A program made the position numbers and the translations under genes. A stretch of DNA of 64,000 nt from an uncultured Actinomycetes bacterium (GTDB lineage: Bacteria; Actinomycetota; Thermoleophilia; Solirubrobacterales; 70-9), in the NCBI GenBank assembly GCA_963843315.1, contig CAWJJU010000002.1:166872-230871 (forward strand). The letters are read 5' to 3'. Shown piece by piece: positions 30,755 to 62,436 of the stretch. The notes below the pieces were generated by a model. The model searched no databases. It saw only the letters and a program-made list of their open reading frames with translations, and was not told where the DNA came from. Position 1 is the stretch's first letter, and each line of letters begins with the position of its first letter.

Positions 30755-31875
30755 ATGACGGGGGTCCTGGGGGGCGCGGGGCGGCGGGCGGTGGCGGTGT
30801 CGACCAGCTCGCCCATGCCGTCGACCGTGTGCGACCAGGCTCGCTCAGAGCGCACCTCGCGCGCGCCGGCGGCCAGCCGCTCGCGCTCGGCGTCGTCGGC
30901 CACGCGCTCCATCAGCTCCGTGAGGTGACCGATGTCCGGGTCCCAGGCCGGGATGCCCGACTCGGCCGTGCCGTTTTGGATCGAGCGCACCAGCAGGCCG
31001 TTTCGCTCATGCTCGATCACCTCGTTCAGCGGCGCGAAGTCGCTGGTGATCACCGGCCTGCCGAACGCCATCGCCTCGAACAGGGGCAGGCCCAGGCCCT
31101 CCCAGCGGGCCGGCGTCAGCACCACGTCGGCGCCGGCGACGGTCGCGAGGTGGTCGCTCGTCGTCTGGTCCTCCAGAAGGAACTCGATGCGCGAGTCGCT
31201 CTCGGCCGCCTCGCGGGCGAGCTTGGTGCGCTTGTTGCGCTCGACCTGCGCCTTGATCAGCAGGCGAAGGCGCGGGTTCGTCGTCTTCTGGAACGCCTCG
31301 ATCGCCGGCGCGACGGGCTTGCGGTGGCCGATGAACCCGGCGGGGAAGATGAGCTGGACGACGTCGCCGGGCGCCGTGCGCTTGGGTGTCACGTCGAGTA
31401 GCTCGGGGTTGATGCCCCACGGCACGTACGGAGTCTCGAGGCCGAAGCTCCGGTAGCGCTCCTGCTCGCAGCGGGTCATCGAGTAGACGATGTCGAAGGC
31501 GTCACGGGCGCCGGGCACGTCGGCCTCGGTGAAGTGCTCCCAGACGAACCGGCCGATGGTCACGACCCCGCGGGCGCGCAGCGAGGCGAGCTCGTCGAAC
31601 TGGTAGTTCTGGTCGCACAGGATCACCTCGATGCCGCGGCGCTCGACCCAGCTCTCGTACTCCTCCGCGGTGATGTCGTAGGCCGCCGCCTCGTCGACGT
31701 TGGGCTGGTCCCACACGTCGTCGCGCTGAAGGCGGCCCTTCATCGGCCCCCGCTCCTTCTTGGGGCGGGCGAGGATGAACGTCTCGTGGCCCAGCTCGTC
31801 CATGGCCGAGCGCAGCTGGCGGGCGACCACGGGCTGGCCGCGGTTGAACCACTTCGTGACGAGGCCGACGCGCAC
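30745..31875 (-). CDS. GT4-family (group 1) glycosyltransferase, paralogue 1
   Basis: Starts at the GTG at 31875: VRVGLVTKWFNRGQPVVARQLRSAMDELGHETFILARP.. ..ARWEGLGLPLFEAMAFGRPVITSD (EX7E region). Paralogous to 37966..39063 and 54319..55407. Confidence 0.8.
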   Translation of the reverse strand: MRVGLVTKWFNRGQPVVARQLRSAMDELGHETFILARPKKERGPMKGRLQRDDVWDQPNVDEAAAYDITAEEYESWVERRGIEVILCDQNYQFDELASLRARGVVTIGRFVWEHFTEADVPGARDAFDIVYSMTRCEQERYRSFGLETPYVPWGINPELLDVTPKRTAPGDVVQLIFPAGFIGHRKPVAPAIEAFQKTTNPRLRLLIKAQVERNKRTKLAREAAESDSRIEFLLEDQTTSDHLATVAGADVVLTPARWEGLGLPLFEAMAFGRPVITSDFAPLNEVIEHERNGLLVRSIQNGTAESGIPAWDPDIGHLTELMERVADDAERERLAAGAREVRSERAWSHTVDGMGELVDTATARRPAPPRTPVMGS

Positions 31876-37969: not shown

Positions 37970-39063
37970 CCGCCGAGCAGCTCGCGCAGGTCGGCGAGCG
38001 TGTTGTCCCAGCTCAGCCGCTCGCGAGCGGCGCGCGCTCCGCCGATCAGGTCGCGGCGCATACCGGGGTCGGCCAGGCGCTCGATCGCCGCCGTCAGCTC
38101 GCGCCCATCCGGATCCCACGCCGGGATCCCCGAGGGCGCCGGCTCGCGGAACTGCACCCCGCGCACAAGCAGGCCGTTCTCGCCGTCGCGGACGACCTCG
38201 TTCATGGGCGGGTTGTCGTTGGTGATCAGCGGCATCCCGAGCGCGGTCGCCTCGAAGAGGTGCAGCCCCAGGCCCTCCCAGCGGCTCGGCGCCAGGCAGA
38301 CGTCGGCCGCGGCGAACAGGCGCCGGTGCTCGGCCTCAGGGAGGTCGGCGAAGACCGGCTGGATGCGGGCGTCGCCCTTCGTCGCCTTCTGCACCATCCC
38401 CATGCGCTTCTCCACCTGACCCTTGAGCACTAGCCGGAGGTTCTCGCCGTGGGCGCGTGAGAACGCCTCCAGCGCGGGCTTCAGCGGCTTGCGCTTGGTC
38501 ATGTAGCCGCCGGGGAAGAAGAACGTCACCGGCGCGTCCTCCGGACGCGCATCGCGCTCGGCGTCGAGCGTGACCGCCTCCTCGACCAGCTCCGGGTGGA
38601 TGCCCCACCGCACGCGCGGGCTCTCTATCCCCATCTTCGCGTAGCGCTCGCGCTCGCAGGCCGTGACCGAATAGACCTCGTCGAAGGCCCGCTTGGCGCC
38701 CTCCACGTTCTCGGTGGCGAACTGCTCCCACACGAAGCGGCCGTAGGTGCGCACGCCGGATTCCCGAAGCCTCGCGATCTCGTCGAACTGGTAGTTCTGG
38801 TCGAACATGACGGCGTCGAGCTCGTGCTGGCGCGCCCAGCGCTCCATCTCCTCGTAGGGGATGAGGTAGTGCGAGGCGGCGGTGACACCGGGCTGGTCCC
38901 AGACGTCGTCGGTCTGCAGGTGTCCCGGCTTGGCGGCGGTGTCCTTGGCCGGTCGCGCCAGCACCCAGGTCTCGTGGCCGAGCGTCTCCAGCGCCGAACG
39001 CAGGTGCCTGCCCACCACCGCCTGGCCGCGGTTGAACCAGAAGCACGAGACGCCTACTCGCAT
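37966..39063 (-). CDS. GT4-family glycosyltransferase, paralogue 2
   Basis: MRVGVSCFWFNRGQAVVGRHLRSALETLGHETWVLARP....SRWEGLGLHLFEATALGMPLITNDNPPMNEVV...RLSWDNTLADLRELL. Very similar to 54319..55407. Confidence 0.8.
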   Translation of the reverse strand: MRVGVSCFWFNRGQAVVGRHLRSALETLGHETWVLARPAKDTAAKPGHLQTDDVWDQPGVTAASHYLIPYEEMERWARQHELDAVMFDQNYQFDEIARLRESGVRTYGRFVWEQFATENVEGAKRAFDEVYSVTACERERYAKMGIESPRVRWGIHPELVEEAVTLDAERDARPEDAPVTFFFPGGYMTKRKPLKPALEAFSRAHGENLRLVLKGQVEKRMGMVQKATKGDARIQPVFADLPEAEHRRLFAAADVCLAPSRWEGLGLHLFEATALGMPLITNDNPPMNEVVRDGENGLLVRGVQFREPAPSGIPAWDPDGRELTAAIERLADPGMRRDLIGGARAARERLSWDNTLADLRELLGG

Positions 39064-54318: not shown

Positions 54319-55407
54319 TCAGGCGAGGAGCTCGCGCAGGTCCGCGAGCGTGTTGTCCCAGGACAGGCGCTGCTGGGATCGCAGCGTGCCCTCGGCGAGG
54401 CCGGCGCGCACGCGGCTGTCGCCGATCCGCTCGATCGCCTTCGCCAGGGCCTTCACGTCGGGGTCGAAGGCGGCGATTCCGGAGTCTGCCGGCTGGTCGC
54501 GCTCGACGCCGGGCACCAGCAGCCCGTTCTCCCCATCGAAGACCACCTCGTTCATCGGCGGGTTGTCGTTGGCGATCTGGGGGAGGCCGAGGCCGACGGC
54601 CTCGAAGAGGTGCAGGCCGAGGCCCTCCCAGCGGCTCACCGACAGGCACGCGTCGGAGGCGGCGAACAGGCGCTGGTAGCCCTCGTTGGGCATGTCCTCG
54701 AAGATCAGCTCGACGCGGGGGTCGTCGGCCGCGAGCTTTCGCAGGAAGCCCTCGCGGCCGTCGATCTGGGCCTTGAGGCGCAGGCGCAGGTGGTCGCCCT
54801 TCGCCCTGTGGAAGGCCTTGAACATCGGCCGCAGGGGCTTGCGCTTGTCGACGTGGCCGCCGGGGAAGAAGAGGACGCAGGTGCCGTCGTCGGCGCGGCC
54901 CTCGGCGCGGTAGCGCTCGCCCGCCTCGATCAGCTCCGGGTGGCATCCCCAGCGAACGCGCGGGCTGTCGATGCCCATCGTCGAATACCGCGACTGCTCG
55001 CAGGCGAGCACCGAGTAGACGACGTCGAAGGCGCCCTTGGCGGCCTCGACGTGCTCATCGGAGAAGGTCTCCCAGACGAAGCGGCCGATCGTCCGCACGC
55101 CGGCCGCGCGCAGCTTGGCGATCTCGTCGAACTGGTAGTTCTGATCGAAGAAGACGGCCTCGAGCTCATGGCTGCGCGCGAACTCGAGCATCTCCTCGGC
55201 CGGGATCAGATAGTGGGACGCCTCGGTGATGCCCGGCTGGTCCCAGATGTCGGTGCGGTCGATGAAGCCGGGGCGAGCGGCGGTGAGCTTCGTGGGCCGG
55301 GCCAGCACGAACGTCTCATGGCCCAGCGCGTCGAGCGCCGAGCGCAGATGCCGGCCGACGATCGCCTGGCCGCGGTTGTGCCAGTAGCTGCAGACCCCGA
55401 GGCGCAT
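54319..55407 (-). CDS. GT4-family glycosyltransferase, paralogue 3
   Basis: MRLGVCSYWHNRGQAIVGRHLRSALDALGHETFVLARP...SRWEGLGLHLFEAVGLGLPQIANDNPPMNEVV..RLSWDNTLADLRELLA. Confidence 0.8.
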   Translation of the reverse strand: MRLGVCSYWHNRGQAIVGRHLRSALDALGHETFVLARPTKLTAARPGFIDRTDIWDQPGITEASHYLIPAEEMLEFARSHELEAVFFDQNYQFDEIAKLRAAGVRTIGRFVWETFSDEHVEAAKGAFDVVYSVLACEQSRYSTMGIDSPRVRWGCHPELIEAGERYRAEGRADDGTCVLFFPGGHVDKRKPLRPMFKAFHRAKGDHLRLRLKAQIDGREGFLRKLAADDPRVELIFEDMPNEGYQRLFAASDACLSVSRWEGLGLHLFEAVGLGLPQIANDNPPMNEVVFDGENGLLVPGVERDQPADSGIAAFDPDVKALAKAIERIGDSRVRAGLAEGTLRSQQRLSWDNTLADLRELLA

Positions 55408-56098: not shown

Positions 56099-57301
56099 TC
56101 ACTTCCGCATGCTCAGCGTGCTGAAGAGCCCCGCGTGGTCCGAGTCCCAGAACCCGTTCACCGGCGCGCGGCCCGTGACTGACGAGTTCGCGAGCTTCAC
56201 GCCCTTCGGATCGTCGGTCATGACGTGGTCGACCTGGTGGTCGAAGTCGGTGACGCTCCCCATGTCGTCCGTGAGGATCCCCGTGTTGAGGCAGCAGCCG
56301 AGCGGATTCGCCGTGCTGCGCTCCGTGTAGCCGCGCCCGCGCAGCGCGTTGTAGGCGAGGCGATCGTCGCCGCTCACGGTGTCGTCGTCGGAGTTGCAGT
56401 CGCACACGAGCACCACCGGGAGCTTGCCCTTGGGGTCGGCGACGCTTCCCTTCTTCGTGAGCTCCTTCGCCTGCGCCTCGCGGATCGCCGGATCGCCGAA
56501 CGCCTCGAGGTGCGTGTCGACGAATCGGAACTTCGGCGACTTGCCGACCTTCGCGTCGACGCTCAGCCAGCCCCTGATCACGTGGACCTGAAGCGCGCCA
56601 CCGACCAAGGGCTCGTAAAGGGTGTGGTAGTGGCCGGTCTCGACATTCGACGTCTTGACCCGGCTTCCGACCTTGGCGAGGATGACGTCGCGCATCGTCA
56701 GGCGGTCGTTCTCCTCGCCGTCGCACTGCACGGGACAGGCGTCTCCGTCCCCGGCGATGTCGTTGTAGTCGGCCGGCGCCTCGAAGTCGAACTCCTGGTT
56801 CGCCTTGACCACCCGGTAGCGCTTCTTGCCGGCGTTGAGCTGGCCCAGGAGCTCCTTCAGGTAGTCGTAGCGGACATCGCTGGCAGTGAACGCGCAGTCA
56901 TACGGCGGGTCGCTGTCGACCGAGTCGCCCGTGCAGGTGAAGGGCGCGCCATCGCTGAGCGGTCCCTTGCGCCACAGGGCAACCTCCTGGAGGCCGACGA
57001 GATCGGGGGACTTCGAGCGGATCTCCTTGGCGAGGCCCTTCGCCCGGACGGGGAAGTTGTTGGTGTCGACATCGCGGACGATCTGCCCGTTGGCGTCGAC
57101 GAACTCGTTCGTGGCCGAGGAGTTGATCGCCAGGCCCAGGTCCGCGCCCAGGTAGACGTTGCGGCTCATCACCTTGACCTTCGCCGGCTTCGGCTTGTGG
57201 TGGTGATGGTGATGGTGATGGTGGCCCTTGGCGGCGGCGCCTGCGGCCAGCGCGAGGCTCAGCGCGCCCGCCAGCGCGACGACGCGTCCCATGAACGACA
57301 T
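56099..57301 (-). CDS. Secreted endonuclease/exonuclease/phosphatase (EEP) family protein with a native His9 tract
   Basis: Signal peptide, then KGHHHHHHHHHKPKP, then VMSRNVYLG..VGLQEV..VDTHLEA..DHVMT..WDSDHAG (EEP catalytic motifs). Confidence 0.7.
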   Translation of the reverse strand: MSFMGRVVALAGALSLALAAGAAAKGHHHHHHHHHKPKPAKVKVMSRNVYLGADLGLAINSSATNEFVDANGQIVRDVDTNNFPVRAKGLAKEIRSKSPDLVGLQEVALWRKGPLSDGAPFTCTGDSVDSDPPYDCAFTASDVRYDYLKELLGQLNAGKKRYRVVKANQEFDFEAPADYNDIAGDGDACPVQCDGEENDRLTMRDVILAKVGSRVKTSNVETGHYHTLYEPLVGGALQVHVIRGWLSVDAKVGKSPKFRFVDTHLEAFGDPAIREAQAKELTKKGSVADPKGKLPVVLVCDCNSDDDTVSGDDRLAYNALRGRGYTERSTANPLGCCLNTGILTDDMGSVTDFDHQVDHVMTDDPKGVKLANSSVTGRAPVNGFWDSDHAGLFSTLSMRK

Positions 57302-58954: not shown

Positions 58955-59728
58955 ATGTCTCGGCCAATTCGCTTCGCGCACCGCCGTCTCCCGAACGGCC
59001 TGCCCGACGCTCTGCGGCAGGTTCTCCTGTTTGCGCTCGCGTATGGGCTCTACCAGCTCGTCCGTGGCCTGGTCCACTCCGAGCGCGCGCTCGCGTTCGC
59101 CAACACCGAGCACGTCGTCCACATCGAGCGCTCGCTGGGCGCCTTCTTCGAGCCCGGGCTGCAGCAGGCGATGATGACCCACCGCTGGATCATCGACTTC
59201 GCGGACTTCATGTACCTGAACAGCCACTTCATCCTGACCGCGTCGTTCCTGATCTGGCTCTACATGCGCCGCAACGACAACTTCTACTTCGTGCGCAACA
59301 TGTTCATGGTGGCGATGGGGCTGGCGCTGGTCGGCTACGCGCTCTTCCCCACCGCGCCGCCGCGCGTGCTGCCCTCGCTCGGGTTCACCGACACGGTCGC
59401 CGCGGTCGCGCACGTGAACGACAACTCGTCGATCTCCAGCGTCTTCGTCAACCAGTACGCGGCTGTGCCCTCGATGCACATCGCCTTCGCGCTGCTGATC
59501 GCAGTACCTGGCATGCTCGTGTCGCGCTCCCTCGGCGCGCGCCTGTGGTGGTCGGCCTACCCGATGCTCGTCTTCTTCGTGATCGTCGTCACCGCGAACC
59601 ACTTCTGGTTCGACGCGGCGTGCGGGGCGGCCGTGGCCTGCATGGCGGCGGTCGCAGCGCGGCAGCTCGCCCGAGTTCGCCCCGAGGCATGGGCCTGGCG
59701 CGAGCCGCAGGGCGAGATCGCGGCCTAG
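58955..59728 (+). CDS. PAP2-superfamily membrane protein (inositolphosphotransferase/Aur1-like)
   Basis: Polytopic. Carries PSMH and NHFWFD (HxxxD), the PAP2 C2/C3-like motifs. Confidence 0.6.
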   Translation: MSRPIRFAHRRLPNGLPDALRQVLLFALAYGLYQLVRGLVHSERALAFANTEHVVHIERSLGAFFEPGLQQAMMTHRWIIDFADFMYLNSHFILTASFLIWLYMRRNDNFYFVRNMFMVAMGLALVGYALFPTAPPRVLPSLGFTDTVAAVAHVNDNSSISSVFVNQYAAVPSMHIAFALLIAVPGMLVSRSLGARLWWSAYPMLVFFVIVVTANHFWFDAACGAAVACMAAVAARQLARVRPEAWAWREPQGEIAA

Positions 59729-59752
59729 CCAAAGCGGCTACCGTCAGCCACC

Positions 59753-60385
59753 GTGGAGAGTGAGTCCGGGCAGCTGCGCGACGTTCGCACCGCCGCGGAG
59801 CTTCGCGGCTTCGCGCGCAACCGGCTGATCGAGTCGCGGCTGACCCCGAACGCCATCTCGCTCACCGGCTTCGTGCTGAACGTCGTCGCCGCCGTCCTGG
59901 TGGTCGAGCGCCTCTTTTTCCTTGCCGGCGTCGCGTTCATCGTCGGCTCGGTCATGGACACGCTCGACGGCCGCTACTCGCGGATGTCTGGCAAGGGGAC
60001 GCAGTTCGGGGCCTTCCTGGACTCCACCCTCGACCGCGTCGAGGAGGGCGTCGTCCTCACCGCGGCGGCCTGGTACTTCGCGGACACGGGAGACGCAATT
60101 CCCGCGGCGGCCTGCGTCGCGGCGGTCGTCGGGTCACTCATGGTCAGCTACACGCGGGCCCGCGCCGAGGCCCTCGGGGTGGAGTGCAAGGTCGGCATCG
60201 CCACCAGGCCCGTGCGCGTCGTCGTGCTCTCGGCGGGGCTGATCTTCGCGAAGGGCGCTAGCCTTGGCTCCTTCGAGCTGCTCGCTCCCTCCATCTACGT
60301 GATGGTCGGATTGACCGCCGTGACGGTCGTCCAGCGCGTTTGGCACGTGCGTGGGGAGCTCAGGCGAGTGTCTGAGGGGCTTTAG
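59753..60385 (+). CDS. CDP-alcohol phosphatidyltransferase (probable phosphatidylinositol-phosphate synthase)
   Basis: Motif DTLDGRYSRMSGKGTQFGAFLDSTLDRVEE, which fits D-x2-DG-x2-AR..G-x3-D-x3-D. The gene lies directly upstream of ino1. Confidence 0.8.
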   Translation: MESESGQLRDVRTAAELRGFARNRLIESRLTPNAISLTGFVLNVVAAVLVVERLFFLAGVAFIVGSVMDTLDGRYSRMSGKGTQFGAFLDSTLDRVEEGVVLTAAAWYFADTGDAIPAAACVAAVVGSLMVSYTRARAEALGVECKVGIATRPVRVVVLSAGLIFAKGASLGSFELLAPSIYVMVGLTAVTVVQRVWHVRGELRRVSEGL

Positions 60386-60425
60386 CCCCGAAAGGAGCAT
60401 GTAAAGGACGGCGAAGCCGTCCGCA
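60372..60425 (+). repeat. Modular hairpin repeat, copy 1 (module A 60372-60400, module B 60406-60425)
   Basis: Module A is CTGAGGGGCTTTAGCCCCGAAAGGAGCAT, and the gene's TAG stop sits in the loop of its hairpin. Module B is GGACGGCGAAGCCGTCCGCA. Both recur after ino1. Confidence 0.85.
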
Positions 60426-60505
60426 AGAGATGTTCGACCGATGTAACCAGGGTGTGAATCCGGCATATATTCGGTTCCCCACCCGCCGAGGAGGCTTTCG
60501 CACGC

Positions 60506-61705
60506 ATGAGCACGGACAACGGACTTAACGGAAGCGCGGCCACCGGGGCCGCCGCCGGCAACGGGCGCCGCGTCGACGACGGCAAGGTCCGCGTCGCGAT
60601 CGTCGGCGTCGGCAACTGCGCCAACAGCTTCATCCAGGGCGTCACCTACTACAAGGACGCCGATCCTGCCGAGCAGGTCCCGGGCCTCATGCACGTCGAT
60701 CTCGGCGGCTACCACGTCCGCGACATCGAGTTCGTCGCCGCCTTCGACATCGATGCCGAGAAGGTCGGCAAGGACCTCTCCGAGGCGATCTGGTCGGGCC
60801 AGAACGACACGATCAAGTTCGCCGACGTCGATCACATGGGCGTCGAGGTGCACCGCGGGATGACCCACGACGGGCTCGGCAAGTATCTCAAGCAGAAGAT
60901 CAAGAAGGCCCCGGGCGAGACCGCAGACATCGTCGGGATCCTCAAGGAGACGAAGGCCGACGTCCTCGTCTGTTACCTGCCGGTGGGCTCGGAGCAGGCC
61001 ACCAAGTGGTACGTCGAGCAGGCCCTGAAGGCCGGCGTCGGCTTCGTCAACTGCCTCCCCGTCTTCATCGCCCGCGAGGACTACTGGGACGAGCGCTTCC
61101 AGAAGGCCGGCCTGCCGATCATCGGCGACGACATCAAGTCGCAGGTGGGCGCCACGATCGTCCATCGCCAGCTGGCTCGCCTCTTCCACGAGCGCGGCGT
61201 GCAGCTCGAGCACACCTCGCAGCTGAACGTGGGCGGCAACATGGACTTCTTCAACATGCTCGAGCGCGAGCGCCTGGACTCGAAGAAGATCTCGAAGACC
61301 AACGCCGTCACCTCGGTCATGGGCACCGAGCTCCCCGAGCGCGACGTCCACGTCGGTCCCTCCGACTACGTGCCGTGGCTGACCGACCGCAAGTGGGCGC
61401 ACATCCGCCTCGAGGGCAAGGCCTTCGGCGACGTGCCGCTCACGGCTGAGCTGAAGCTCGAGGTCTGGGACTCGCCGAACTCGGCCGGGGTCGTCATCGA
61501 CGCCGTCCGGACGATCAAGCTCGCCCTGAACAACGGCATCGCGGGGCAGCTCGACGGGCCCTCGAGCTACCTGATGAAGTCACCGCACACGCAGCGGCCC
61601 GACGACGAGGCTCGCCTGCAGACCGAGCACTTCATCGCCGATCACGCGCGCAAGCCCGCCGGCGAGCGCGCGGAGGAGTTGGCGGAGAGTCCTGAGGGGC
61701 TTTAG
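60506..61705 (+). CDS. ino1: myo-Inositol-1-phosphate synthase
   Basis: Contains ..[58 protein letters not shown].., typical of bacterial/archaeal Ino1. Confidence 0.9.
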
Positions 61706-61821
61706 CCCCGAAAGCAGCATTTGTTCGGATGAGGAGCTTTAGCTCCGAAACGAGCAGGTAAGGCGCGCAGCGCCGCATGTTCTGGACGGCGAAGCCGTCC
61801 GCATGTGCTTTCGGGGCTGAG
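61692..61821 (+). ncRNA. Candidate structured RNA / composite repeat downstream of ino1
   Basis: Module A is at 61692-61720, an A-like variant TGAGGAGCTTTAGCTCCGAAACGAGCAG at 61730-61757, the hairpin GGCGCgcaGCGCC at 61763-61775, and module B at 61784-61803. ATGTGCTTTCGGGGC (61803-61817) can pair back to GCCCCGAAAGCAGCAT (61705-61720). Confidence 0.4.
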
Positions 61822-61839
61822 ACCCGGTCTGGGACCAGC

Positions 61840-62436
61840 TCAGCAGGGGTTGCCGGTAAAGCTCGCCTGCGACTCCCCGGCGACGATGTCGCCGGCGGGC
61901 GTCGCCACGCGCAGCGCGCGGAACGTGCCGCTGTGCGCGTCGGAGACCGACTCGTTCAGGAAGACGACGTTGCCGACGTTGAGCGGGGTCTGCTGGCGTT
62001 CACCGGCGGCAGCTCCGAGCTGGCGTCGACGCCCGCGATCTGAGGCTGCGCCGACGACGACGGGCTTGCCGCCCTGGCAGCTGACATAGGCGTCGGAGCC
62101 AGCAGGCGAGGTTCGCCGGGCCCTCGACGCCGGTATCGGAGCCGGGCGACGTCGGCGGAGGCCTGTCCCGCCCGTCGGCGAGACGGTCGTCTGGCTGCGC
62201 AGGATGCCGCCGGTGTCGAACTGGCTCCACCGGGTCTGCTGGACGCCCGAGGCGGTGCGGCACGGAGTTCCGGCGGCGTTGGCCACGGACGGCTCGATCG
62301 AGCCGATCCGAAGCGCCGAGGCGCGGCACGAGACCGTCGAAGCGGCGCCGGCGCCGGCCGGCAAGATCGCGGCTGTCGCGGCCACTGCGGCGCACGCGAC
62401 CAGCCCTCTACTGAACGAATCCCTACCCATTCCCAT
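61840..62436 (-). CDS. Hypothetical secreted protein, probably carrying compensating frame breaks
   Basis: Signal peptide ..LVACAAVAATAAILPAGAGAAS. Arg-rich nonsense-looking stretches (GLRRRRPAPIPASRARR and DRGRRRQLGAAAGER) read more plausibly in other frames, for example PQIAGVDASSELPPVNAS. Confidence 0.35.
   Translation of the reverse strand: MGMGRDSFSRGLVACAAVAATAAILPAGAGAASTVSCRASALRIGSIEPSVANAAGTPCRTASGVQQTRWSQFDTGGILRSQTTVSPTGGTGLRRRRPAPIPASRARRTSPAGSDAYVSCQGGKPVVVGAASDRGRRRQLGAAAGERQQTPLNVGNVVFLNESVSDAHSGTFRALRVATPAGDIVAGESQASFTGNPC

Follow-up and report, generated by a model that had tools for sequence, protein, structure and literature searches.

A likely family of short two-hairpin repeats with built-in stop codons at gene ends in Solirubrobacterales

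Why should two neighbouring genes with different products end in the same three residues, at the same point of the same hairpin? The question is raised by the window analysed here, the whole 64-kb stretch of contig CAWJJU010000002.1 from an uncultured Actinomycetes bacterium. In it, a gene for a CDP-alcohol phosphatidyltransferase (open reading frame (ORF) 59753-60385; PF01066) ends ...VSEGL followed by TAG at 60383-85, and the adjacent ino1, the gene for myo-inositol-1-phosphate synthase (ORF 60506-61705; PF01658), ends ...SPEGL followed by TAG at 61703-05. An earlier interpretation made from the letters alone (the sequence-only reading) had placed both ends inside a repeated module A, followed by a second module B, and had proposed either a repeat that remodelled gene 3' ends or a cis-regulatory RNA for the inositol genes. 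Our analysis indicates that the modules are likely to represent a previously undescribed family of short interspersed repeats, non-autonomous and similar to REP elements and to miniature inverted-repeat transposable elements (MITEs), that has multiplied to many loci per genome. Its known hosts are Solirubrobacterales (Thermoleophilia, Actinomycetota).

A dispersed repeat unit with two conserved hairpins

Inspection of ORF ends and exact matches confirmed that both genes end EGL-TAG inside module A, with each TAG made up of two bases from the end of the loop of GGGGC-TTTA-GCCCC and the base that opens its 3' stem arm. Exact copies of the module A 21-mer, GAGGGGCTTTAGCCCCGAAAG, lie at 60374-60394 and 61694-61714, against none in 100 shuffled sequences, and the 20-mer of module B, GGACGGCGAAGCCGTCCGCA, follows at both loci, exact at 60406-60425 and 61784-61803 (0.06 expected). 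A third copy of GAGGGGCTTTAGCCCCGAAAG, with 3 mismatches, lies after ino1 at 61731-61751; it had been described as degenerate, but it belongs to a second, recurrent subtype of the repeat. In the 64-kb window, modules A and B are confined to the ends of these two genes.

When copies were lined up, the modules proved to be the two halves of one unit of ~62 nt, which reads n-TGA, GGGGC TTTA GCCCC, GAAAGCAGCATGTAAGG, GGnCGnC GnA GnCGnCC and GCAAG(A/T)(G/T)ATTCA. Module A corresponds to TGA-GGGGCTTTAGCCCC-GAAAG and module B to GGACGGCGAAGCCGTCC, and a conserved linker of 17 nt joins the two dissimilar hairpins. The left end of the unit is thus TGA followed by hairpin A, and the right end is hairpin B followed by GCAAGnnATTCA; the conserved head is the TGA itself, without a GTAG/GTGG-type head, and the preceding base varies among G, A, T and C. 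The primary sequence of the unit, loops and linker included, is near-invariant over at least 40 species. Hairpin A was also found without hairpin B (L031:852-912, L042:1260-1320, L007:2094-2158 and L061:1890-1947; L numbers are labels of individual loci compared with the window), joined instead to GAAAG-TGGCTGGTGCCGTC... or CAGCATGTGCCGGTGG..., so that it appears to be a module combined with more than one downstream module.

A search for further copies of the modules recovered many dispersed ones. The scan of a collection containing one genome per species for the module A 19-mer GGGGCTTTAGCCCCGAAAG gave at least 114 stretches, of which, among the matches listed, ~95 belong to ~44 assemblies assigned to Solirubrobacterales or to unclassified Actinomycetota, and a single assembly contributed up to 7-8 loci. 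A second, independent collection, seeded on the linker and hairpin B only (the B-seeded set), provided 99 soil-metagenome contigs with 117 matches to a covariance model (CM) built from 84 copies of the repeat. The unit is present in at least 40 species-level Solirubrobacterales genomes and in ~100 soil metagenome contigs, and the first copy in the window alone (unit 1) has blastn matches of 55-60 nt to ~50 loci. Within the window, the CM scan gave four matches (78, 52.6, 25.4 and a weak reverse 11.8 bits) and nothing else convincing. An Rfam cmscan of 59600-62200 with E up to 10 matched no relevant family, and our literature search found no paper on repeats in Solirubrobacterales, Conexibacter or Thermoleophilia.

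The flanks of the copies are unrelated, and their neighbours, named from N-terminal translations rather than Pfam scans, include atpA, rplK, rpsE, murA, an acyl-CoA dehydrogenase gene and a LigD polymerase-domain gene. Several copies lie inside operons, namely upstream of atpA, in the nusG-rplK spacer and upstream of rpsE. Most loci harbor one copy; tandem or nested arrays occur at L011 (three copies at 91-nt spacing, upstream of rplK), L002 (two copies at 102 nt), L067, L025, L108 and before atpA. Copies are single, direct tandem or nested, and the only forward/reverse pairs observed are those in the window and at L032. An integron attC site was rejected as an identity for the unit, on the grounds of missing core sites and housekeeping flanking genes, as was a CRISPR array, on the grounds of irregular spacing. 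Viral contigs (IMG/VR) contained one AT-rich match, TAG-AGGGGCTTTAGCCCCGAAAGGGAATGTAAAATG, between two genes at L121:3440-3500, with an identical hairpin, a similar linker and an unrelated context; as this sole viral match is unrelated, the element does not appear to be phage-borne.

Both hairpins show strong covariation. In hairpin B, 98% of the cells are paired, with 84 double changes compared with 28.6 after column shuffling and at most 19 with slid partners. Hairpin A is invariant in the genome set because that set was selected by the exact 19-mer; in the B-seeded set 99% of its cells are paired and 128 double changes were counted against 36.6 expected, figures that lean slightly toward structure since the alignment was fitted to the CM. 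Two of its pairs read GC66/AU25/CG3 and GC82/AU7/CG6 in this set, and its stem appears as GGGGC/GCCCC, GGAGC/GCTCC, GGACC/GGTCC, GGAAC/GTTCC, GGATC/GATCC, GCGC/GCGC and GGCGC/GCGCC. Both stems are therefore kept by compensatory changes.

The 19-mer GGGGCTTTAGCCCCGAAAG was encountered in other settings as well. In one Methylobacter metagenome-assembled genome (MAG) it lies inside a different, high-copy element (L006, L022, L024, L027, L034, L039 and L072, and further L076, L082, L090, L098, L103, L104 and L113) with a long perfect palindrome, GTGGGAGGGGCTTTAGCCCCGAAAGTCGGGGCTAAAGCCCCTCCCAC, flanked by ~25-nt inverted repeats (GAGACTGTGAAAGTATTCAT...), which resembles a true MITE; that it contains the 19-mer too is probably a coincidence magnified by its copy number. 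In Acidobacteriota MAGs (L087, L094, L096 and L107), GGGGCTTTAGCCCCGAAAG follows, at a distance of ~20 nt, another hairpin whose loop is CTTTAG, CTTAAG or CTTCAG, e.g. GGCATGGCTTTAGCCGTGCC, and these hairpins may constitute a separate hairpin-repeat family. Matches in Methylobacter, Acidobacteriota and other such organisms were rejected as family members, being different elements.

The inositol locus in the window and in related genomes

The copies in the window and the sequences next to them are arranged as follows.

60373-60432, forward strand: complete unit 1 (CM 78 bits, E = 3.6e-33; exact pattern matches)
60373-75, forward strand: TGA of unit 1; then hairpin A at 60376-89, with TAG 60383-85 as the phosphatidyltransferase stop
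60390-60405, forward strand: linker of unit 1, with ATG-TAA at 60399-60404
60406-22, forward strand: hairpin B of unit 1, with a 7-bp stem and a GAA loop; then tail GCAAGAGATG at 60423-32
60433-60446, forward strand: former last codons and stop of the phosphatidyltransferase gene, surviving as a relic, TTCGACCGATGTAA
60447-60505, forward strand: conserved ino1 leader, ..GGCATATATTCGG..GAGGAGG..ATG, outside the repeat (comparison with L115-L120)
61693-61720, forward strand: left half of the outer unit after ino1 (CM 25.4 bits, model positions 9-33; exact pattern), with TGA 61693-95, hairpin A1 at 61696-61709, TAG 61703-05 as the ino1 stop, and linker GAAAGCAGCAT
61730-61783, forward strand: complete inner unit of the second subtype (CM 52.6 bits, E = 1.4e-21), with TGA 61730-32 and hairpin A2, GGAGC-TTTA-GCTCC, at 61733-46 (compensatory G:C to A:T); linker GAAACGAGCAGGTAA with TAA 61759-61; short hairpin B2, GGCGC-GCA-GCGCC, at 61762-74; tail GCATGTTCT
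61784-61803, forward strand: hairpin B1, GGACGGC-GAA-GCCGTCC, plus GCA, the right half of the outer unit, common to the reverse partial copy (exact pattern)
61784-61825, reverse strand: remnant of a reverse unit, comprising half of hairpin A, GAAAGCACATGC and hairpin B (CM 11.8 bits, E = 0.005)

Unit 1 folds into its two hairpins at -31.4 kcal/mol (z = -4.1). After ino1, an inner unit is nested within an outer one, and this A-A'-B'-B composite recurs at the unrelated loci L108 and L025 with 81-84% identity over 116 nt; the GGAGC/GCTCC plus GAAAC subtype of its inner unit recurs at L093, L030, L105 and L055. The reverse remnant belongs to the 3' end of the convergent gene 61840-62436 (reverse strand).

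The tails of the two proteins were compared with those of their relatives. EGL is absent from the C-termini of all 119 closest Ino1 orthologues (85-96% identity), whose tails vary, e.g. ...AAEQTAS and ...LAES. Six orthologous loci, L115 to L120, were then compared base by base with the window. Without the element, the phosphatidyltransferase ends ...ELIKLESM* in L118, ...ELKALEPV* in L119 and ...QLKQLEPV* in L116, and a soil contig (run X2) with the flanks of the window is likewise element-free and ends ...ELKRLEPM*. The unit is present at this position in the window, L115, L117 and L120, and the junctions differ: the protein ends ...GGEGL* in L120 and stops at the TAA of the unit in L117, while the L115 unit has decayed, having lost its stops through a deletion in hairpin A and a change of TAA to TCA. 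As called, the phosphatidyltransferase ORF of that locus (L115:1912-2514) reads through the unit and past the start of ino1, probably as an artefact of annotation or else through a recent extension. In the window, the relic at 60433-60446 aligns with the real gene end in L118 (CTCGAATCGATGTAA), in L116 and L119 (CTCGAACCGGTGTAA) and in the empty-site contig from run X2, and it is non-coding because the element was inserted upstream of it.

The region after ino1 differs among the loci too. L119 has no element there, its convergent stop codons being 1 nt apart; L115, L116 and L120 carry one full reverse unit at the end of the convergent gene, and L117 and L118 only a reverse hairpin A. The forward composite occurs in the window alone among the seven loci. 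In L116 (3690-3727), Ino1 (P0005, 408 aa) has acquired a 13-residue tail, SVAASPSLHAAFGG, from the antisense of the reverse unit, with the TAA in the loop of hairpin A as its stop. The lack of an EGL tail in the Ino1 orthologues, together with the empty, filled and reverse states of these loci, indicates that the tails are element-derived and that the element is not a fixed resident of its sites. Related genomes differ by gain, loss, inversion, nesting and tandem multiplication of copies, and C-termini are rewritten in the process. The first proposal of the sequence-only reading, that a repeat has remodelled gene 3' ends, is thus borne out by the dispersed family, the missing Ino1 EGL tail, the native LESM*/LEPV* tails and the relic.

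Its second proposal, an inositol-specific cis-regulatory RNA (riboswitch, leader or attenuator) common to the phosphatidyltransferase gene and ino1, has in its favour that the modules lie at these two genes only within the window and that the fold after ino1 is very stable. However, the unit follows dozens of unrelated genes, and it is missing at the same inositol loci of relatives whose Ino1 is 93-96% identical. In addition, the helix that closes the stable fold is not conserved, Rfam offers no match, and the conserved ino1 leader lies downstream of the element and is present in 7/7 orthologous loci, element or no element. We regard an inositol-specific RNA as scarcely tenable. The leader itself, with its GAGGAGG Shine-Dalgarno sequence 13-14 nt upstream of the ATG, may hold the ino1 promoter or operator.

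The fold after ino1 and the start-stop mini-ORF

A junction of ~115 nt enclosing three hairpins had been predicted after ino1. Positions 61803-61820 are indeed complementary to the 3' half of module A, and 61680-61835 folds at -85.3 kcal/mol (z = -6.95) with a closing helix around three hairpins; hairpin A1 is not formed in this fold because its 3' arm pairs with the closing segment. The closing helix is missing, however, at L025 and L108, whose composites fold differently, and at the orthologous ino1 loci. Given the reverse copies at the orthologous loci, the closing segment is what is left of hairpin A in an ancestral reverse copy, whose hairpin B also serves the forward outer unit, and the large fold arises where the forward composite came to lie beside this older reverse copy of the convergent gene. 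The junction is therefore thermodynamically real, yet idiosyncratic to the window.

The start-stop mini-ORF noted in the 5' region of ino1, AAAGGAGCATGTAA with GGAG and ATG-TAA, is present at 60391-60404 but is not a feature of the family. Its GGAG is peculiar to unit 1 (the family consensus is GAAAGCAGC), many copies have GTG, AGG or ACG in place of its ATG, and only 2 nt separate GGAG from ATG in unit 1. A conserved mini-ORF was rejected, as neither the Shine-Dalgarno sequence nor the ATG is conserved and in view of this 2-nt spacing.

Stop codons and position relative to genes

With positions counted from the T of TGA as 0, the unit carries three sense-strand stops in three frames: TGA at 0, TAG at 10 and TAA at 29. 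The TGA stands immediately 5' of hairpin A in 99 of 103 high-scoring copies and in 99/107 of the B-seeded set. Stops were found at position 0 in 101 of the 103 copies, at position 10 also in 101, a figure largely fixed by the search as TAG lies within the 19-mer by which most of these copies were collected, and at position 29 in 73 (65 TAA and 8 TGA). All three frames are closed on the sense strand in 72/103 copies and on the reverse strand in 4/103. The corresponding figures for the B-seeded set are 49/85 (7.2 expected after shuffling) and 1/85, one frame being closed there by construction since TAA was part of the search pattern.

Coding strand and frame were called from three-base GC periodicity after removal of orthologous duplicates. 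The upstream gene is co-directional with the unit at 41 of 57 callable loci in the genome set and 35 of 46 in the metagenome set (~75%). At these co-directional loci, the unit supplies the upstream stop in 19/41 and 10/35 cases, respectively, and the upstream stop lies 1-15 nt before the unit in 15/41 and 19/35. For ~80% of co-oriented copies, the stop of the upstream gene is thus in the unit or at most 15 nt away, and the TGA is carried by the element even where the upstream gene stops before it. Of all copies, ~25% run antisense or occupy divergent promoter regions. Downstream, the first possible start is found a median of 16 nt past the unit, and no start-codon overlap was seen. Directly before the unit, the last codons of an acyl-CoA dehydrogenase-like gene form a 12-bp palindrome, GTCATAGGCCGT-nnnn-ACGGCCTATGAC, which is kept in several species (L016:2657-2700, L018, L020:3823-3866 and, on the reverse strand, L083).

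One explanation of this distribution is that the unit is host-selected punctuation of gene ends, either an orientation-specific terminator or attenuator (factor-independent or factor-assisted) or a stabiliser of mRNA 3' ends, which replaces hairpin-plus-U-tract terminators and whose three-frame stops keep ribosomes off hairpin B. It would account for the sense orientation at ~75% of loci and the gene-end position, for the convergent pair of ino1 and its neighbour, where each copy is oriented with its own gene, for a sequence near-invariant in at least 40 species and more so than the coding flanks, and for three-frame stops confined to the sense strand. However, neither hairpin is followed by a U-tract (the tail being GCAAGAGAUUCA), and a scan for the terminator consensus performed at chance, with 2 sites against 1.2 expected and only B1+CATGTGCTTT qualifying. 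Copies also lie in operons where termination would be unwanted (before atpA, in nusG-rplK and before rpsE), close relatives manage without the unit at the same gene ends with spacers down to 1 nt, and about a quarter of the copies are antisense or in divergent promoter regions. These observations make host-selected punctuation, in our view, an unlikely explanation.

RNA or DNA as the folded form

In 83/103 copies the loop of hairpin B reads G-N-A with a closing C:G pair, and 6 further copies have a GNRA loop. The c(GNA)g motif, as in the d(GCGNAGC) and d(CCGAAGG) mini-hairpins, is extraordinarily stable as DNA and far weaker as RNA (PMC13037366, PMC3201870). Among stem mismatches, G.T and A.C are equally rare (9 vs 9), so that the data do not tell RNA from single-stranded DNA as the folded form.

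The element might accordingly act at the DNA level, its single-stranded hairpins being recognised by an HUH/Y1 enzyme (RAYT or an IS200/IS605-type TnpA) or by a replication protein, with any RNA structure incidental. The mini-hairpin loop speaks for this, as do the equal mismatch counts, which give no sign of selection on the sense RNA only, and the two different subterminal hairpins without terminal inverted repeats or target duplication, as in IS200/IS605 derivatives. On the other hand, orientation follows the neighbouring gene and not the chromosome arm, being mixed within the 8-kb loci L009, L078, L023 and L004 and at the convergent ino1 pair; the variable base before TGA leaves no 4-5-nt target or GTAG-type head; and no transposase lies between inverted copies. 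A DNA-level element is, on balance, improbable.

Points against a mobile repeat

Several observations weigh against the interpretation that we favour, that of a repeat family that multiplies and inserts. The left and right ends of aligned copies are unrelated, i.e., there are no terminal inverted repeats. No target-site duplication was found between filled (window, L115, L117 and L120) and empty (L116, L118, L119 and X2) junctions, which are ragged, and whose flanks have diverged enough that a duplication of 1-2 nt could escape the comparison. Between inverted copies, at L009 and L020 only, there is no transposase; LigD polymerase-like and acyl-CoA dehydrogenase-like ORFs are found instead. 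The unit roughly fills very short spacers, and as intergenic spacers in these genomes measure 1-60 nt, its closeness to stop codons is partly forced and not targeted. Finally, copies at orthologous sites in different species share 95-99% identity, a value partly inflated by the exact 19-mer selection of copies, while the flanking coding DNA is 68-89% identical. An element more conserved than its coding flanks fits host-selected function or gene conversion better than a selfish, decaying insert, and the pattern points to sequence-specific constraint or homogenisation, which lends some weight to the host-function and DNA-level alternatives.

Comparison with known repeat families

The unit invites comparison with the REP, BIME and REPIN elements of enterobacteria and pseudomonads, which are also short GC-rich palindromic units and which, for REP, occur between genes in their hundreds, mostly behind a gene end and on the transcript of that gene. 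REP/BIME elements protect upstream mRNA, and in work by Liang, Rudd and Deutscher from 2015, REP reportedly stalls the terminating ribosome when it lies at most ~15 nt from the stop codon. A REP is, however, an imperfect palindrome of 20-40 nt with a 5' GTAG/GTGG head, whereas here the palindromes are preceded by a TGA head. REPINs are inverted pairs, whereas our copies are single, direct tandem or nested; and the present unit has two different hairpins on a conserved 17-nt linker, with built-in stop codons, and no RAYT was identified among the genes between inverted copies, the only place covered.

Bacterial MITEs (Correia/NEMIS, ERIC, RUP, YPAL, and the Coxiella and Rickettsia elements; reviewed in PMC2229807) are likewise non-autonomous small repeats with stable transcript structure and with filled and empty sites between relatives, as found here. 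Stops close every frame of RUP, CIR and the 155-bp Correia form, and protein termini are changed by YPAL, RPE and RU-3, through co-translation or fusion to the end of a gene. The unit described here differs in its length of ~62 nt, in having neither terminal inverted repeats nor a TA or other target duplication, and in closing all frames on one strand. The PATEs derived from IS200/IS605 share with it two different subterminal hairpins and the absence of terminal inverted repeats and of target duplication; here, however, the unit is much shorter, no 4-5-nt target is defined (3-nt TGA only), orientation follows genes and not the replication strand, and no cognate TnpA was found among the genes between inverted copies, to which that search was limited.

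MIRUs of Mycobacterium tuberculosis, reportedly described by Supply et al. in 1997, are another actinobacterial repeat, of 40-100 bp, and overlap the upstream stop. They form direct tandem arrays in operon spacers; here such arrays occur at some loci, most loci having a single copy. They are not known to consist of two covarying hairpins, and they contain small ORFs that couple a stop to the next start, whereas the present unit overlaps the stop in 29-46% of sense copies and no start overlap was seen. Intrinsic terminators differ in having a U-tract directly after the hairpin, and riboswitches or leaders in that here the neighbour genes are unrelated and no overall fold is conserved. The element works like REP/BIME, MITEs and MIRUs without the defining features of any of them, and would be a further family of this familiar type.

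A possible course of events and its implications

If the modules form an interspersed repeat family, one unit would have inserted ~13 nt before the native phosphatidyltransferase stop, replacing the last ~5 codons, and the new EGL tail would be coded by the element's own GAG GGG CTT. At the end of ino1, the nested composite, inner unit within outer unit, would have inserted to give the (P)EGL terminus. The three-frame stops would end translation within ~30 nt in any frame, before hairpin B. Gene-end insertions would then be harmless and sense copies would survive, which could produce the orientation bias without targeting. The unit would presumably be co-transcribed with the upstream gene, as 3' untranslated or intercistronic sequence. 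None of the RNA runs examined contains the strain of the window (share of sampled words ~0.1). Soil metatranscriptome contigs at the atpH-atpA locus carry the element, which is weak evidence, given without strand or end information, and the metatranscriptome contigs that match the window are community ino1 homologues plus one empty-site contig. By analogy with REP, ERIC and YPAL, the GC-rich hairpins probably act as a barrier to 3' exonucleases or as a brake on the terminating ribosome.

A more speculative possibility, to which we attach little probability, is that the unit has been domesticated as an orientation-specific gene-end cassette, combining an any-frame translation stop with a hairpin by which the 3' end of the mRNA is set or protected, in a lineage without canonical terminators; alternatively or additionally, it may be copied by a mechanism that homes to stop-proximal DNA via the c(GNA)g single-stranded-DNA mini-hairpin. 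If true, the cassette or the homing would explain why the unit is more conserved than the neighbouring coding DNA.

As a repeat family, the unit explains two odd, identical protein tails as repeat-derived, and it defines such a family for an abundant, barely studied soil order. For annotation, ORFs that end ...EGL* or ...EDL* or that read into the unit would be repeat artefacts, some of them mis-extended by gene callers (e.g. the L115 phosphatidyltransferase). The consensus and the CM could be used for masking, for strain-level variation and as a typing marker in the manner of MIRU and REP-PCR. The unit is also a compact natural module of three-frame stops and two stable hairpins, of relevance to translation termination, mRNA stability and operon polarity. 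With its unusual conservation and DNA-type hairpin loop, it also prompts one to ask which protein recognises it.

Other features of the window

Two further features of the window lie outside the repeat. The 400-aa ORF at 56099-57301 (reverse strand) contains a run of nine histidines near its N-terminus (KGHHHHHHHHHKPKP), and its orthologues show a weak match to Exo_endo_phos (PF03372). The stretches 30987-31875, 38163-39063 and 54513-55407 are 65-80% mutually identical and in register, at spacings of 7188 and 16344 nt, and by their sequence are probably three paralogous genes.

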